Of a stretch of 5,159 nucleotides of DNA, positions 1 through 5,159 are shown in pieces. How positions within the stretch are numbered: position 1 is the stretch's first letter; each line of letters starts with the position of its first letter. Below the pieces are notes generated by a model. The model was not told where the DNA came from, did not search any database, and saw nothing but the letters and a program-made list of their open reading frames with translations. Source of the stretch: a virus (Duplodnaviria; Heunggongvirae; Uroviricota; Caudoviricetes); the IMG/VR virus record IMGVR_UViG_3300018477_000004, positions 1-5,159 of that record; one strand, written 5' to 3'. Made by a program: the position numbers and the translations under genes.

Positions 1-1
1 A

Positions 2-1312
2 AACGGCGGATTGTTGGCTGGTATCGGCGGCGTCAACTCAAACGCTCCGAGCGTAAATGACATCGGCAATACGCTTCAGCTTATCAGGCAGAACAATGAT
101 ATTGAGCGTTCAGGCGCTAACAATGTTGGGCTTACTGCTTTGCAAGGCCTTTCAGGCATTGCAGGGGTGTTTCAGCAGGAAAAGCAGGCTCAGCGGCAGA
201 AAGAATTTCAGCAGGCGTACGCTAATGCTTATGCGTCTGGTGATCGCGGTGCTTTGCGTCAGTTGGCTACTCAATATCCAGACCAGATTGAATCCGTCCG
301 TAAAGGCATGGGGTTCATTGATGAAGACCAGCGTAATTCTATCGGCACCTTAGCGGCTGGCGCACGCCTTGCGTCATCGTCTCCAGAAGCAATGCAATCA
401 TGGCTGCAAAACAACGCCGGTGAGTTAGCTCGTGTTGGCGTTAATCCTCAGGACGTCGCTCAGATGTACCAACAGAACCCGCGGCAGTTCGGCGAATTTG
501 TCGATCACCTGGGGATGAACAGTCTCGGACCCGAAAAATACTTTGACCTACAGGATAAAATGCAGGGTCGCCAGGTTACCATGCGCGGTCAGGATCTGGA
601 TTCGCAAACCGCCGCTCGGAATCAGGCAATCACAATGCGCGGGCAAGATATCCAGGCGAATTTAGGTCAGCAGCGCATTAATCTGGACGCAGAAACAAAC
701 CGCATTAACAACGAAAATAAGCGCCTTGACCGGATGCTATCAGCAGAAACTAACGACCTGAAGCGCCAGGAAATACAGAGCCGCATAGCAGCCAACAACC
801 AGCAGTTGCAGCAGAAGCAGCAAGCGCTAAATGATGGCTACAAAGACGGCATCAACACCCTCACAACCAGCATGTTCACTCTGAACGATATCGTTAGTTC
901 TCCTTCACTTAAGAGCATTACAGGCTTACGTGGAGTAATCCCCAACGTTCCAGGCTCACAGGCTGCAGACACTCAGGCACGACTTGATACCTTTAAATCC
1001 CAAGCATACCTGACAGCGGTTCAGGCCATGCGAGGCATGGGCGCACTTTCTGATGCCGAGGGCAAAAAGCTCGACCAGGCTGTTGGTTCGCTGCAGAACT
1101 CGCAGAGCGAGGAGTCCTTTCGTCGCAACGCTGGCGTCATCCTGAACACGCTCAACCAGAAGCGTAATGAGGCGGTTGGTAAGTACGTTCAGCAAAACGG
1201 TATCAAGCGAGTGGAAGCGCCTCAGGCTTCTATAGATTACCTGAAGCAACACCCCGAGCTGTCAATCGACTTCATTAATCGCTACGGATATCTTCCATCT
1301 TTGGGGCAGTAA
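2..1312 (+). CDS. Internal virion / DNA-ejection protein, P22 gp20-like by position; 5'-partial because the frame is open to the window edge
   Basis: Long ORF in frame 2 with no in-frame stop between position 2 and the TAA at 1310-1312. The track start at 11 is a TTG with no convincing upstream RBS, so the gene most likely begins upstream of the window. The protein is Q/N-rich with a predicted coiled-coil stretch (approx. nt 650-840, '...QQRINLDAETNRINNENKRLDRM...QQLQQKQQALN...'). It sits immediately upstream of, and is translationally coupled to, the SLT-domain ejection protein, as for gp20 before gp16 in P22-like phages. The functional call rests on position and composition, not on recognised sequence identity. 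Confidence 0.8.
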   Translation, partial: NGGLLAGIGGVNSNAPSVNDIGNTLQLIRQNNDIERSGANNVGLTALQGLSGIAGVFQQEKQAQRQKEFQQAYANAYASGDRGALRQLATQYPDQIESVRKGMGFIDEDQRNSIGTLAAGARLASSSPEAMQSWLQNNAGELARVGVNPQDVAQMYQQNPRQFGEFVDHLGMNSLGPEKYFDLQDKMQGRQVTMRGQDLDSQTAARNQAITMRGQDIQANLGQQRINLDAETNRINNENKRLDRMLSAETNDLKRQEIQSRIAANNQQLQQKQQALNDGYKDGINTLTTSMFTLNDIVSSPSLKSITGLRGVIPNVPGSQAADTQARLDTFKSQAYLTAVQAMRGMGALSDAEGKKLDQAVGSLQNSQSEESFRRNAGVILNTLNQKRNEAVGKYVQQNGIKRVEAPQASIDYLKQHPELSIDFINRYGYLPSLGQ

Positions 1313-1640
1313 ATGGCTAATTACCGTGATTTGTTAGAGCAGGCTGGCGCACGTTACGGTGTGCCAGAAGGGTTGATGACTGCACTGGGTGCCAAGGAGT
1401 CTTCTTACAACCCTGCCGCAGTAAGCTCCGCCGGGGCTGTAGGATTGACTCAGGTCATGCCTGGGACATGGCGTGATATGGGTTATACCGATGAGCAAAT
1501 GCAAAACCCCGAATATCAGGCTGACGCTGGCGCGCGCTATCTGGCAAAGATGTACCAGCAGTTTGGTAACTGGCGTGACGCTCTTCAGGCTTATCACGAC
1601 GGTCCCGGCAACGTTATGAAGGCAAAGCGTGGTGAATATA
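1313..1640 (+). other. Lytic transglycosylase (SLT) catalytic domain within the ejection protein
   Basis: The ES, GLTQ and AYHDG motifs occur in the canonical order and spacing for goose-type-lysozyme-like SLT domains. Domain boundaries are approximate. Confidence 0.8.
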
Positions 1641-3706
1641 CGCCAGGACCTGAAGGCCGCGGTTACGTTGATGATCGCTTTGCTCAATGGGCGGGTGACC
1701 CGGTGACAGACTCAACAGTCGAACAGCGCGCCACCTCTGCAAAGGTACATCCTCAGCAAGACCCTAACAACCCGTTTGCACAACTGGAAGCACAGTCATC
1801 CGAACAAGTATCGGCATCAGGCGTGCAGTCAGACCCAAATAATCCATTTGCTCAGATTGAGCAGCAGGCAGCCAGTCAGCAGCCACCTCAACCCGTAAGT
1901 TCTGTCGCACCGAAACCTGTTCAGCAGCAAGGCGGAATAATGTCTGACCTTGGTAATGGACTTGCTGAAACCGGGCGCGGCTTACTACAGGCAGGAATCA
2001 ACGTAGCGAACATACCTGCTGAACTCACTGATGCTGTAACAAGCGCGGCGGCTTGGGCTGGCGGTAAACTCGGCATTGGCGATGGTACATATCAACCAGC
2101 ACCACGAGTAACAACGCAGGGATTAGAGCAGGACTTTGGCCTTCAGCAAGGCGCGCTGACTCCACAAACGACAGAGGGAAGGGTATTTGCTGAAGCATTG
2201 CCTTACCTCACTCCTGCTGGCGTTGAGAGAGCGGCGGTACAGGCACCAACACTTGCTGGTCGAATTGCTCATGGGGCAACTCGACTTCTAGCAGAAAACG
2301 CAGTTGGATCACTTGCTGCAAACAGTGCGAAAGATGATGCGGAAGCACTCGCCACCGATTTAGGCGTTGGTGTGCTGGCTGGCGGTGCTATTAACGCTGC
2401 CGGACGTGGATTAGGTGCTGCTTATCGTGGTGTTCGTGGTTCGATAGCACCAGAAGCGCAACAGGCTATCAGATTTGCAGAACGTGAAGGAGTTCCTCTG
2501 CACACCACAGACCTGTTACAACCCATTTCCCGCGTCGGAAAAATGGCGCAGACGACAGCGGAAAATATCCCCCTGGCTGGCACAAGCGGAATGAGAGCAA
2601 CGCAACAGGAAGCGAGAAGCCAGTTGGTGCAGAGATTTGCTGATAAATTCGGTGAGTATGATCCAGCTGTTGTTATTGACAGCCTTAAAGCGAAAACATC
2701 AGGAATTCGTCGCGCTGCAGGAAATCGACTGGAGCAGGTTCAGAATGCTATGGCGGGAATAAACATTCAGCCTGCAAGAGCAATTCAGCAGATTGATACA
2801 GAAATATCTAACCTGCAGAAGCTTGGTAAGGTTGCTGATAACGAGACTATTTCAAAACTTCAGTCCTATCGTGATGAGCTTGTTCGCAATGCTGGTCCTG
2901 ATGGTCCGGTAAATCTGGATTTGAAGCAATTAAGCGATCTGCGCAGCCAGTTCAGAATGGACGTGAAGGGGGAGCGACCAGTGTTACCAAACCGTTCCGA
3001 TGCTGCCATTCAGCGCGTTTACAAGGCAATGACCGACGATATCAATGGTGCCATTGGTCAGAATCTTGGCAACGATACTCTCCGTAAATATCAGCAGGCC
3101 AATGCCGTCTACGCTGACGAAGCGGCGAAACTAAAGAATACCAGGCTGAAGAATGTTCTCATGAAAGGCGACCTGACGCCGGAAGTTGTCAACAACATGC
3201 TATTCAGCAAGAACAAATCGGAAATTAAGACTCTGTATAACTCAGTTGGTCGTGTTGGCAGGGCGCAAATGCGCAATGGCATCATTGGAAAGGCGATGGA
3301 GAAATCAGGTGGTTCCCCTGACCAGTTCCTTCGGCAGCTTAACATCCTGCAAAACCAGACTGGCATCACATTTAAAGGTCAGGAAGCCGCTTATCTGAAA
3401 GGATTGAAAAACTACCTGCAATCCACGCAGCAGGCTGCAAAAGCGGCAGTAACAACACCAACAGGGCAGCAAACCATCCCGTTCATTATCGGGTATGGGA
3501 CGGCAATGAACCCGGCGACAACTGGCGCAGCGGTAAGCTACGGACTTCTTACTCGCGCCTATGAGAGCGAGCCATTCAGAAATGCAATGCTCCGAATGGC
3601 AAACACCCCACGCGGATCAACAGCGTTTGAGAAAGCCATGCAGCAGGCGCAAAAGGCCATTAACGCCCTGACTCAAGGTGCCAAGTCTGATGCGTTGTCA
3701 GAATAG
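1313..3706 (+). CDS. Large ejection / internal virion protein with N-terminal lytic transglycosylase (SLT) domain; occupies the P22 gp16 position
   Basis: 797-codon ORF from ATG 1313 to TAG 3704-3706, with GGGG 7 nt upstream of the ATG. The N-terminal ~110 residues carry the family-1 lytic transglycosylase motifs: catalytic Glu-Ser in 'GAKESSYNP' (Glu codon 1397-1399), 'GLTQVMPGTW', and 'AYHDGPGNV' (AYNAG-like). These are followed by a low-complexity linker with two DPNNPFAQ(L/I)E repeats, a Gly/Ala-rich segment ('GVGVLAGGAINAAGRGLGAAYRGVRGS', approx. nt 2360-2450) and a long C-terminal region. Confidence 0.93.
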   Translation: MANYRDLLEQAGARYGVPEGLMTALGAKESSYNPAAVSSAGAVGLTQVMPGTWRDMGYTDEQMQNPEYQADAGARYLAKMYQQFGNWRDALQAYHDGPGNVMKAKRGEYTPGPEGRGYVDDRFAQWAGDPVTDSTVEQRATSAKVHPQQDPNNPFAQLEAQSSEQVSASGVQSDPNNPFAQIEQQAASQQPPQPVSSVAPKPVQQQGGIMSDLGNGLAETGRGLLQAGINVANIPAELTDAVTSAAAWAGGKLGIGDGTYQPAPRVTTQGLEQDFGLQQGALTPQTTEGRVFAEALPYLTPAGVERAAVQAPTLAGRIAHGATRLLAENAVGSLAANSAKDDAEALATDLGVGVLAGGAINAAGRGLGAAYRGVRGSIAPEAQQAIRFAEREGVPLHTTDLLQPISRVGKMAQTTAENIPLAGTSGMRATQQEARSQLVQRFADKFGEYDPAVVIDSLKAKTSGIRRAAGNRLEQVQNAMAGINIQPARAIQQIDTEISNLQKLGKVADNETISKLQSYRDELVRNAGPDGPVNLDLKQLSDLRSQFRMDVKGERPVLPNRSDAAIQRVYKAMTDDINGAIGQNLGNDTLRKYQQANAVYADEAAKLKNTRLKNVLMKGDLTPEVVNNMLFSKNKSEIKTLYNSVGRVGRAQMRNGIIGKAMEKSGGSPDQFLRQLNILQNQTGITFKGQEAAYLKGLKNYLQSTQQAAKAAVTTPTGQQTIPFIIGYGTAMNPATTGAAVSYGLLTRAYESEPFRNAMLRMANTPRGSTAFEKAMQQAQKAINALTQGAKSDALSE
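1760..1861 (+). repeat. Two copies of an in-frame 30-nt unit encoding DPNNPFAQ(L/I)E, separated by 42 nt, inside the ejection protein linker
   Basis: Copy 1 is 1760-1789 (gac cct aac aac ccg ttt gca caa ctg gaa) and copy 2 is 1832-1861 (gac cca aat aat cca ttt gct cag att gag). The peptide is conserved but 7 of 10 codons differ at the nucleotide level. Confidence 0.7.
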
Positions 3707-3795
3707 CTTCGCAAACACCAGGAACGTGCAAAAACCAAATATGTAGAACGCAATATTCAGCATATCTCTTTGCATAAATCCTCCGTAACTGATAG

Positions 3796-4056
3796 TTAGC
3801 TGCTGTCTTTTTTATATAGCTCTTTGAGCGTATCAAAGACAATTTTCTTAACCATATCAGATTGTTGTTCTGCCATACGCTCTGCATCGTCAATGTAAAC
3901 TGATGCAGAGCTTTGTTTAGCCAATGATTCTTCAATCGCTGCAATTATCTCTGAGTTCAGAGACCTGTTATTCATCTTCGCACGCTGTTTAATTTTCGCG
4001 TGGAGTTCATGCGGAAGTCTCAAGTGAAACTGCGCCTCGTCGTATTTGCTGTACAT
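3796..4056 (-). CDS. mnt: Mnt-like ribbon-helix-helix (Arc/MetJ family) transcriptional repressor
   Basis: Minus-strand ORF ending at the TAA complement at 3796-3798. The product ('...FHLRLPHELHAKIKQRAKMNNRSLNSEIIAAIEESL...DAERMAEQQSDMVKKIVFDTLKELYKKDSS') closely resembles P22 Mnt as I recall it ('...FNFRMPMEVREKLKFRAEANGRSMNSELLQIV...DAERLADEQSELVKKMVFDTLKDLYKKTT'). The start is placed at the ATG complementary to 4054-4056, which gives a P22-like N-terminal length and has GAGG about 8 nt upstream. The longest ORF would instead start at 4089 (11 codons longer). Confidence 0.85.
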   Translation of the reverse strand: MYSKYDEAQFHLRLPHELHAKIKQRAKMNNRSLNSEIIAAIEESLAKQSSASVYIDDAERMAEQQSDMVKKIVFDTLKELYKKDSS

Positions 4057-4129
4057 CCTTGATGCCTCACCAGTTGGGTGGAATGGCATCGTAACCTACT
4101 GGATAAATACTCAATAGTACCATTTCGGT

Positions 4130-4152
4130 ATGCAATCACATCATGGTTGCAT
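4130..4152. promoter_or_regulatory. Inverted repeat ATGCAA-N11-TTGCAT in the divergent mnt/tailspike intergenic region; candidate operator
   Basis: Perfect 6-bp arms at 4130-4135 and 4147-4152, read directly from the sequence. It lies between the divergently transcribed repressor and tailspike genes and overlaps a possible leftward -10 (complement of 4151-4156 = TATGAT). Any function is inferred. Confidence 0.25.
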
Positions 4153-4166
4153 CATATCATTCGTCT

Positions 4167-4170
4167 GGAG
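4167..4170 (+). promoter_or_regulatory. Shine-Dalgarno (GGAG) for the tailspike gene
   Basis: GGAG sits 7 nt upstream of ATG 4178. Confidence 0.5.
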
Positions 4171-4177
4171 CAATGAA

Positions 4178-4519
4178 ATGTCAGATATCACCGCAAATGT
4201 TGTGGTAAGCATGCCTTCGCAACTCTTCACTATGGCTCGTTCTTTTAAAGCCGTAGCCAATGGCAAAATTTATATCGGTAAAATTGACACTGACCCGGTA
4301 AATCCTGAAAACCAGATTCAGGTTTATGTGGAGAACGAAGACGGTTCTCACGTCCCTGTTTCGCAACCAATCATCATTAACGCTGCTGGTTACCCTGTAT
4401 ATAACGGACAGATTGCCAAATTCGTTACCGTGCAAGGCCATTCTATGGCTGTTTATGATGCGTACGGTGTGCAGCAGTTCTATTTTCCGAATGTGCTTAA
4501 GTATGACCCTGATCAGTTC
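4178..4519 (+). other. Tailspike head-binding (particle-attachment) domain
   Basis: This is the block conserved with P22 gp9 residues ~1-113. Similarity is lost right after 'KYDPDQ(F)'. Confidence 0.8.
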
Positions 4520-5138
4520 AAGATTCTAATAGAAGGAGATGATGGCTATAAATACATACCAAGTCTTAATAAAATAAAATCAGAAATACCAGCAGAATAT
4601 TTTCGAACAATATCTAGCGATGACCAATCAACACTTCAGAATGCTATTGATTATGCAACATCTAAAGGATGGTCAGTATTTCTTGAAACGGATAAAGTAT
4701 ATAGAGTTAGATCTGTCAATGTTTCTTGCATGTTGCGTGGATTCTCTTTCATTGAAAGGATTGAAGGAACATCTGAAACATTGATAAATATGATGAGTGG
4801 AGGTGGATTAAAAGATCTAACTATAAATGGAATGATAACGTCAGGAAATGACACCGTTGGAAATATTGTTTGCCAAGGGTTAACTTCTGTTTTATTTAAG
4901 AATATAAAATCAATTAATGCCGGTGGCCATAACATAACAATTAGAGATACTCCTGAAAATGGAGGAAATACAATTAAAGATTGTTATATTTCAGGAACGC
5001 GTGTTGGATATGGGATTTATCTTAGGAATGTGCGTGGGGAATCAATTAAAAATACAAAGATAACAAAATGTGCTAGTGATGGTCTTGCGTTATCAAATTC
5101 ATCATTTACTGAATCCCCTGTTGAAATTGTTGGTGTAG
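4178..5138 (+). CDS. Tailspike protein, 3'-truncated: P22 gp9-like N-terminal head-binding domain fused to a divergent AT-rich beta-helix receptor-binding module
   Basis: ATG at 4178 with GGAG 7 nt upstream. The frame is open to the window end with no stop, which is probably why the ORF track omits it. The N-terminus '[46 protein letters not shown]...[13 protein letters not shown]...NVLKYDPDQ' is near-identical to the P22 tailspike head-binding domain as I remember it ('[46 protein letters not shown]...'). Downstream of ~4520 the sequence is AT-rich and encodes motifs typical of right-handed parallel beta-helix depolymerases ('[25 protein letters not shown]', repeated 'N-x-I/V-x-x-C...G-x-x-G-I-x-L' rungs). 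The final 21 nt of the window are adapter and are excluded from the CDS. Confidence 0.9.
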
Positions 5139-5159
5139 AGATCGGAAGAGCACACGTCT
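5139..5159. other. Illumina TruSeq adapter sequence (AGATCGGAAGAGCACACGTCT); a sequencing or assembly artefact, not biological sequence
   Basis: Exact 21-nt match to the start of the standard Illumina TruSeq adapter, located at the extreme 3' end of the window. Confidence 0.9.

Follow-up and report, generated by a model that had tools for sequence, protein, structure and literature searches.

The stretch of DNA analysed here (the window, 5159 nucleotides) most probably comes from a P22-like (Lederbergvirus) prophage of E. coli and covers the end of its late operon, with a tailspike that consists of two fused modules of separate history; we put the probability of this reading at roughly 90%. 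Codons 1–113 would encode the anchor by which the spike is inserted in the tail, and from codon 114/115 onwards the gene would encode an unrelated β-helix module. The point of fusion would fall at 4517–4525, in the flexible linker between the core of the anchor and the body of the spike. Three boundaries, namely the end of the similarity to other tailspikes, the start of the homology among modules of this kind and the change point in GC content at third codon positions (GC3), lie within about 9 nt of one another inside this linker. Such a coincidence marks a fusion of two modules, each with a history of its own.

Gene order and limits of the window

The genes and limits of the window are as follows.

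11–1312, plus strand: gp20-like ejection protein of 433 amino acids with a P22 injectosome translocase domain (Pfam Inj_translocase)
1313–3706, plus strand: ejection protein of 797 amino acids with an N-terminal SLT lytic transglycosylase domain (Pfam SLT)
3796–4089, minus strand: Arc/Mnt-type repressor (Pfam Arc/Mnt; 3796–4056 in the annotation of relatives)
4164–4177, plus strand: ribosome-binding region and left limit of the tailspike cassette held in common with STEC384 (blastn against L002)
4178 to beyond the end of the window, plus strand: tailspike open reading frame, starting with ATG (open reading frame and Pfam)
5139–5159, plus strand: Illumina TruSeq adapter, 21 bases, non-biological (exact match to AGATCGGAAGAGCACACGTCT)

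Pfam assignments and synteny place the tailspike gene last in the late operon, after gp20/gp16-type ejection proteins and an mnt/ant moron, which is where the genes of P22-like tailspikes are found. At least 80% of the window is matched in 42 complete E. coli genomes, with 96.6–98.3% identity among the matches listed, and the matching genomes carry the annotations phage DNA ejection protein, lytic transglycosylase domain protein, Arc family protein and head-binding-domain/tailspike protein. Matches to E. coli genomes end at 5139, where the adapter begins; zero occurrences of AGATCGGAAGAGCACACGTCT are expected by chance. The tailspike gene is incomplete in the window, being cut off by a contig end that bears this adapter.

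A scan of the window against Rfam gave zero matches. Within 3650–4600 there are three promoter-like sites, set against 2.7 expected, which is chance level, and three terminator-like sites, set against 0.5 expected; all of the latter lie within coding regions, none of them at the junction.

The head-binding anchor

Two features describe the first part of the tailspike gene.

4178–4516, plus strand: head-binding (virion-anchor) domain, tailspike codons 1–113 (Pfam PF09008; GC 44%, GC3 0.45)
4490–4519, plus strand: conserved end of the anchor, NVLKYDPDQ (protein and codon alignments)

Residues 1–113 match the 113-position Head_binding model (PF09008) over its full length with an E value of 6.5e-67, and structures matched over the same residues are PDB entries 7sg7 (Sf6 gp14), 1lkt (P22) and 2xc1. 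The anchor is 92–99% identical in protein sequence to those of the Sf6, HK620, CUS-3 and IME10 tailspikes, and 72–100% identical to those of 16 relatives. The sequence-only reading had described this part of the gene as similar to P22 gp9. The anchor is indeed shared with P22, but only distantly: that of BTP1, a P22-type tailspike, is 76% identical to the window in protein and 68% in DNA. To judge from these alignments, the anchor of the window is of the E. coli/Shigella type, with the P22 type as a distant variant.

The end of the anchor is identical in 15 of 17 aligned tailspikes and is kept in Proteus phage Brookers; phiSG1 alone departs from it (NVLKYEPKK). In divergent relatives, the DNA of the last 30 nt of the anchor is no better conserved than that of the rest of the domain, and the conservation there does not go beyond what the protein requires. 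About 20% of complete E. coli genomes, about 1130 among 5426, carry the 5′ part of the tailspike gene.

Where similarity ends

In the frame set by the ATG at 4178, Gln113 is encoded by 4514–4516, Phe114 by 4517–4519 and Lys115 by 4520–4522. The sequence on either side of these codons can be described by three further features.

4517–4525, plus strand: junction, codons F114/K115/I116, where similarity ends, module homology begins and GC3 has its change point
4520–4579, plus strand: linker or neck of the receptor-binding module (alignment; pattern [FL][KR]xxLxxxDGYKxxPS)
4520–5138, plus strand: first 206 codons of a right-handed β-helix receptor-binding module of 520 residues (GC 33%, GC3 0.17)

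A megablast search of 50 697 phage records gave 26 matches, 25 of which stop at 4516–4523, among them those to IME10, Sf101, HK620, CUS-3 and Sf6; the lone exception, phiv205-1, stops early at 4392. In blastn mode most of 68 matches stop at 4509–4523, with P22-type Salmonella phages extending to 4535 and SEN22 to 4557. Matches to E. coli genomes stop at 4511–4525 in nearly all of a spread sample of 60 rows drawn from the roughly 1130 genomes. By comparison, 4520–5138 is present in only three of the 5426 complete E. coli genomes, those of STEC384, STEC379 and ET665, at 99.2–99.5% identity.

The gene was also aligned pairwise, with penalised end gaps, with 16 tailspike genes, and the change point in match frequency was located by maximum likelihood. 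The segment of low identity begins at 4519–4526 in nine relatives (CUS-3, IME10, Sf101, HK620, epsilon34, g341c and three E. coli prophages), and for close relatives the 2-lnL support intervals span 5–11 bases, mostly 5–9. The change point for Sf6 is at 4535. Among 12 P22-like tailspikes, the close relatives drop from 82–95% identity to 51–57% across the junction; shuffled sequences under the same scoring give 55.5 ± 1.2%. Ec573 and SEN22 keep 60–73% DNA identity up to about 4557–4610. A BLASTP comparison of the receptor-binding domain of the window with 13 other P22-like ones returned nothing significant, the best E value being 0.018.

The claim that similarity to P22-like tailspikes ends within a few codons of 4517–4520 is thus upheld by both the change points (4519–4526) and the BLAST ends (4511–4525), and alignment with Sf6, HK620, CUS-3 and relatives shows an abrupt collapse to the shuffled baseline near 4520, not a gradual decay. 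The placement of the junction at a domain linker also agrees with structural work. In the cryo-EM study of Sf6 the core of the anchor comprises residues 17–106 and the linker to the spike body residues 107–123 (PMC9728967), and the junction falls within the linker so defined.

Base composition

The GC content is 51.9% up to 3706, 41% in 3707–4177, 43.9% in 4178–4519 and 33.0% in 4520–5138. The sequence-only reading had taken a composition of about 50% GC to run up to the junction. This is not the situation in the window, where 51.9% applies only up to 3706 and the DNA just before the junction has 43.9%; the largest GC step of the window lies near 3710–3730, where the second ejection gene ends. 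The claim of a compositional break at the junction itself holds for GC3 but not, at that resolution, for total GC. Within the tailspike gene the change point in GC over all positions is weak, with a log-likelihood ratio (LLR) of 5.7 that is reached by 15 of 500 shuffles, and localises only to 4438–4574. The change point in GC3 is sharply placed, with codon 116 (4523) as the first low one, support over 4517–4556 and an LLR of 14.4 that is reached by none of 2000 shuffles.

Across the junction GC3 falls from 0.447 to 0.175, GC1 falls from 0.553 to 0.398 and GC2 rises from 0.316 to 0.413. First and second positions taken together go only from 0.43 to 0.41, so that the drop is almost wholly in the third position. 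In a 60-nt profile the linker at 4520–4579 reaches down to 25–28% GC.

The full-length module has 34.8% GC and a GC3 of 0.20, the lowest among the 16 tailspikes compared. In 13 other P22-like genes the receptor-binding part has a GC content of 0.37–0.53 and a GC3 of 0.29–0.57, usually a few points from that of the anchor, and in most P22-like tailspikes there is no GC step at the seam. That this gene shows a step when most relatives do not is due to its module having the lowest GC and GC3. Homologous modules, which encode similar proteins, have GC contents of 0.42–0.475 and GC3 values of 0.33–0.45; the low GC3 of the module in the window is therefore not forced by the protein.

The receptor-binding module

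Downstream of the junction the gene matches the Pfam Beta_helix family, and the window holds the first 206 of about 520 residues of a β-helix body. This part is 99.2–99.5% identical to the 634-residue tailspikes of STEC384, STEC379 and ET665. An AlphaFold model of the full-length protein P0001, which is 99% identical, shows an all-β, right-handed β-helix over residues 134–634 with a pLDDT of about 90. The model is uninformative for residues 1–133, since only two of the aligned sequences carry that domain, and for this reason the structure of the linker was taken from the Sf6 cryo-EM paper. Foldseek matched the tailspikes of Sf6, P22, HK620 and CBA120 together with alginate epimerases; these are generic β-helices with TM-scores of 0.2–0.6, none of them close, and no catalytic residues could be assigned from such generic fold matches. 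The fold suggests that the module is probably a receptor-binding depolymerase.

A search of a large protein collection with residues 115–634 gave 11 homologue clusters. P0001 (69 member sequences) and P0010 (39% identical) have the Head_binding anchor. P0005, P0007, P0009 and P0011 have a Tail_spike_N anchor (PF18668, of the TSP1/gp66 type); P0003 has a weak match to Tail_spike_N under the Pfam cut-off, and P0004 is a close relative of P0003. P0006 combines the T7 tail fibre's N-terminal domain (Phage_T7_tail) with Tail_spike_N and lies on a T7-like contig on which genes for gp15, gp16, holin and terminase are also found. The N-termini of P0002 (68% identical) and P0008 are without a Pfam match. 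Homologues of the module, 34–68% identical and 514–526 amino acids long, thus stand behind four kinds of anchor. In every one of them the homology starts at the residue aligned with F114/K115 and extends to the C-terminus, and the [FL][KR]xxLxxxDGYKxxPS start is common to most anchor contexts, including Tail_spike_N. Judged by these protein relationships, the module family is mobile between phage families. The proposal that P22-like tailspikes exchange receptor-binding domains at the end of the head-binding domain fits these results well: the anchor is conserved, the downstream parts are unrelated and the module occurs behind four kinds of anchor.

The same homologues bear on the idea that the downstream part diverged in place, under diversifying selection and a mutational AT bias and without recombination. 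Receptor-binding domains are under arms-race selection, and the faint resemblance of the linker or neck in Ec573 and SEN22 is what such a history might leave. However, identity reaches the shuffled baseline within about 6 nt and the synonymous composition switches at the same codon, and relatives that are 55–68% identical stand behind unrelated anchors in phages that are T7-like or of other kinds. Such homologues, together with the switch in synonymous composition, exclude divergence in place for practical purposes, and we consider it very improbable.

The module is previously uncharacterised, rare and unusually AT-rich at synonymous sites. When GTDB representative genomes and IMG/VR were scanned for close relatives of it, nothing turned up, and no donor was found. 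The closest homologue outside the P22 type is about 70% identical in DNA and 68% in protein. Microhomology at the seam was sought against the nearest non-P22 homologue (L018), where DNA similarity starts only about 100 nt into the module, so that the comparison is uninformative. The GC3 of the module (0.20) is far under that of the E. coli prophage context and of every homologue found. One could suppose that the module is a recent import from an unsampled low-GC phage or host lineage and that it encodes a depolymerase acting on some E. coli O-antigen or capsule type not yet characterised, but we hold this to be unlikely. If it were so, [FL][KR]xxLxxxDGYKxxPS would mark a cross-family, protein-level 'splice site' that operates also in Lederbergviruses, a group with no reported recombination motif.

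Crossovers in the carrier genomes

Comparison of the window with the genomes that carry the same junction shows where recombination can be detected. One interval within the anchor is of note.

4246–4462, plus strand: interval holding a homologous crossover in head-binding DNA (window against STEC384)

Against STEC384, the window has 11 mismatches in nucleotides 1–69 of the gene, the last of them at 4246, then a single mismatch (at 4462) in 273 nt, and 99.6% identity further on. There is no similarity upstream of 4164, the sequences differing beyond TCTGGAGCAA, and the upstream flank in STEC384 is of the ant type of CUS-3/epsilon34. Against ET665, the window has one mismatch in 2401–4825, a segment that spans the junction. 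Divergence sets in at about 2000–2300 (40 mismatches in 2001–2200), and no DNA similarity is detectable upstream of 1922. SB0258h1 is near-identical to the window over 1–2000 and loses all similarity at 4519. From ET665 and SB0258h1 an upstream crossover is placed at about 2000–2300, in an ejection-protein gene.

The contig ends in Illumina adapter and hence comes from a short-read assembly, and the head-binding domain, being found in some 20% of E. coli genomes, is repeat-like. An assembler might in principle have joined it to the wrong downstream sequence. The junction is, however, identical in the window and in three complete genomes and so is not an assembly artefact: the complete genome of ET665 runs across it with the single mismatch noted above, STEC384 and STEC379 carry the same junction, and cluster P0001 comprises 69 sequences. 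A chimera is therefore scarcely credible, and we take the junction to be genuine.

None of the crossovers that can be mapped lies at 4520. That position is an inherited homology boundary, an old fusion common to all carriers of the module, and not a site of recent crossover. The description of 4520 as a recombination junction, given by the sequence-only reading, is accordingly right in that two unrelated modules are fused there; it does not hold for the recent crossovers that can be detected, which fall at 4246–4462 and at about 2000–2300.

The lack of a recent crossover at 4520 would also be expected if the whole tailspike gene moved as a cassette without intragenic exchange, 4520 then being a domain boundary in an old, co-inherited gene. 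STEC384 and ET665, whose prophages are otherwise unlike, share the tailspike cassette alone, at 99% identity; it extends from 15 nt before the start to 23 nt beyond the stop. The window and the three genomes that carry the module also have one and the same junction. Against this, over 1000 E. coli prophages have an anchor half with 90–95% DNA identity to this one and an unrelated other half, and the downstream half has homologues behind unrelated anchors. Halves with different relatives have separate histories, and at least one intragenic fusion is needed. In addition, the boundary with STEC384 is a crossover inside the anchor and not at the edge of the gene. As a replacement for fusion, cassette movement is improbable. 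It is better read as a complement, describing the spread of the module after the fusion had taken place.

Proposed history of the fusion

We suggest that an AT-rich module was joined once, in frame, to a head-binding domain within the linker. The original event was probably illegitimate or microhomology-mediated recombination, since no sequence common to both partners is seen at the seam; this mechanism is inferred rather than observed. Selection would then have retained only products in which the spike could still fold and assemble. From then on the module may have spread among P22-like prophages by homologous recombination, the left arm of the later exchanges being supplied by the conserved DNA of the head-binding domain or by genes lying further upstream. 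The compositional step would remain visible as the module keeps the synonymous-site composition of a source of lower GC content and has not drifted toward that of its new context.

Comparison with known systems

The gene has the features of a P22-like tailspike and those of an exchanged receptor-binding module: an abrupt end of similarity, homologues behind other anchors and a compositional seam. Like P22 gp9, Sf6 gp14, HK620 gp9, the CUS-3 endosialidase and epsilon34 gp19, it has a PF09008 domain ending in NVLKYDPDQ, a linker and a right-handed β-helix. Unlike the tailspikes named, it carries a module that is rare, has the lowest GC and GC3 and is without detectable similarity to theirs (E ≥ 0.018). 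This agrees with the description of P22-like tailspikes in the epsilon34 genome paper, where residues 1–115, the head-binding part, are said to be similar throughout, and no relationship to be recognisable among the C-terminal parts (PMC2629481).

In a survey of E. coli phages that included Lederbergviruses, anchors were found to be conserved within a genus and receptor-binding domains to be exchanged across genera (Pas et al., 2023; PMC10408124). The present module family resembles such a case, with members among Tail_spike_N-anchored, Lederbergvirus-type and T7-like proteins as well as in the Gamaleyavirus pSb-1. Conserved DNA motifs on either side of the receptor-binding domain (motifs 1–3), which could serve as hotspots of recombination, are present in lytic genera and absent from Lederbergviruses (PMC10408124). 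In the window, likewise, no shared DNA is seen at the seam beyond what the protein sequence requires.

Shigella phage pSb-1 (Gamaleyavirus) gave the only tblastn match to the module in the phage collection. Its gp19/gp18 are 48% identical over module residues 21–207 and have a NosD/β-helix signature. In contrast to the window, the pSb-1 module lacks an anchor, is annotated as two short hypothetical proteins and has a GC content of 43%. The DNA similarity passes the stop codon of gp19 into gp18, which indicates that the gene is split or frameshifted in pSb-1.

Implications

The architecture of anchor and receptor-binding domain, with a boundary at about residue 115, was described in 2008 at the latest. 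The phenomenon at the seam is ordinary and of the textbook kind, and the understanding of phage mosaicism is unchanged by it; it is the particular receptor-binding module that was previously uncharacterised. The seam nevertheless provides a clean worked example of how host specificity changes in P22-like prophages. For this module, residue 114/115 is an exact cut-and-graft point, useful in tailspike engineering and in the prediction of serotype tropism. The rarity of the module and its AT-richness are mildly interesting leads to its origin and to its target polysaccharide.

Mosaic structure of the tailspike gene and its upstream region

The tailspike of the E. coli STEC384 locus (L002), which carries a 99%-identical receptor-binding module, is of the CUS-3/epsilon34 ant type over its first 69 nt and upstream flank (L002 5659-6000); beyond those 69 nt it matches the window at 99.6% identity. 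Such a pattern marks a homologous crossover within the DNA that encodes the head-binding domain, at window positions 4246-4462. The window's largest GC step lies at 3707-3730, where the second ejection-protein gene ends and GC drops from 52% to about 41%, and not at 4520, the seam between anchor and receptor-binding module where the sequence-only reading had placed a compositional break. Relative to the ejection genes, GC is already approximately 8-10 points lower in the mnt moron and in the tailspike anchor.

A single gene separates the ejection genes from the tailspike in the window, with neither arc nor ant present:

3796-4089, minus strand, Mnt-like repressor with Arc and Repressor_Mnt domains

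Its reading frame could start at 4089, or at 4056 as its relatives are annotated. In STEC384 the same tailspike is preceded by a full mnt-arc-ant region and a ClpP-like gene, whereas the window has the mnt-like gene alone.

There is a further mosaic breakpoint in the gene for the SLT-domain ejection protein (1313-3706), at approximately 1922-2300. Window positions 1-2000 track an SB0258h1-type E. coli prophage and approximately 2400-5138 track the E. coli ET665 prophage, from which the window differs by 40 mismatches within 2001-2200. Upstream of 1922 there is no DNA similarity between ET665 and the window. The protein comprises 797 amino acids in the window versus 665 in its ET665 homologue. 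We also observed a tandem peptide repeat (DPNNPFAQLEAQ… / DPNNPFAQIEQQ…) encoded at 1766-1870 of this gene, within a low-complexity stretch that leads from the SLT domain to the remainder of the protein.

The 3' end of the tailspike gene

The tailspike gene is cut off at 5138 in the window, and the final seven codons of the apparent reading frame (…EIGRAHV) are an artefact:

5139-5159, 3' end, exact match to the Illumina TruSeq adapter (AGATCGGAAGAGCACACGTCT)

Distribution of the receptor-binding module

Within the phage collection the module has a single homologue, formed by gp19 and gp18 of Shigella phage pSb-1 (L014 3998-5508), which are annotated as two hypothetical proteins and in which the anchor domain is absent. 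The DNA similarity continues beyond the gp19 stop into gp18, and the pair has the look of a tailspike that is split or frameshifted, or else of a sequencing error.

Carriers of the same tailspike differ in their downstream sequence (L003 7568-10115 in ET665 versus L002 7645-8802 in STEC384). In ET665 a gtrA/gtrB/DUF6056 O-antigen glucosylation cluster follows, adjoining torT; in STEC384 intS follows directly, adjoining a tRNA-Arg gene and yfdC. The prophages that carry this one receptor-binding module therefore differ in integration site and in serotype-conversion cargo.
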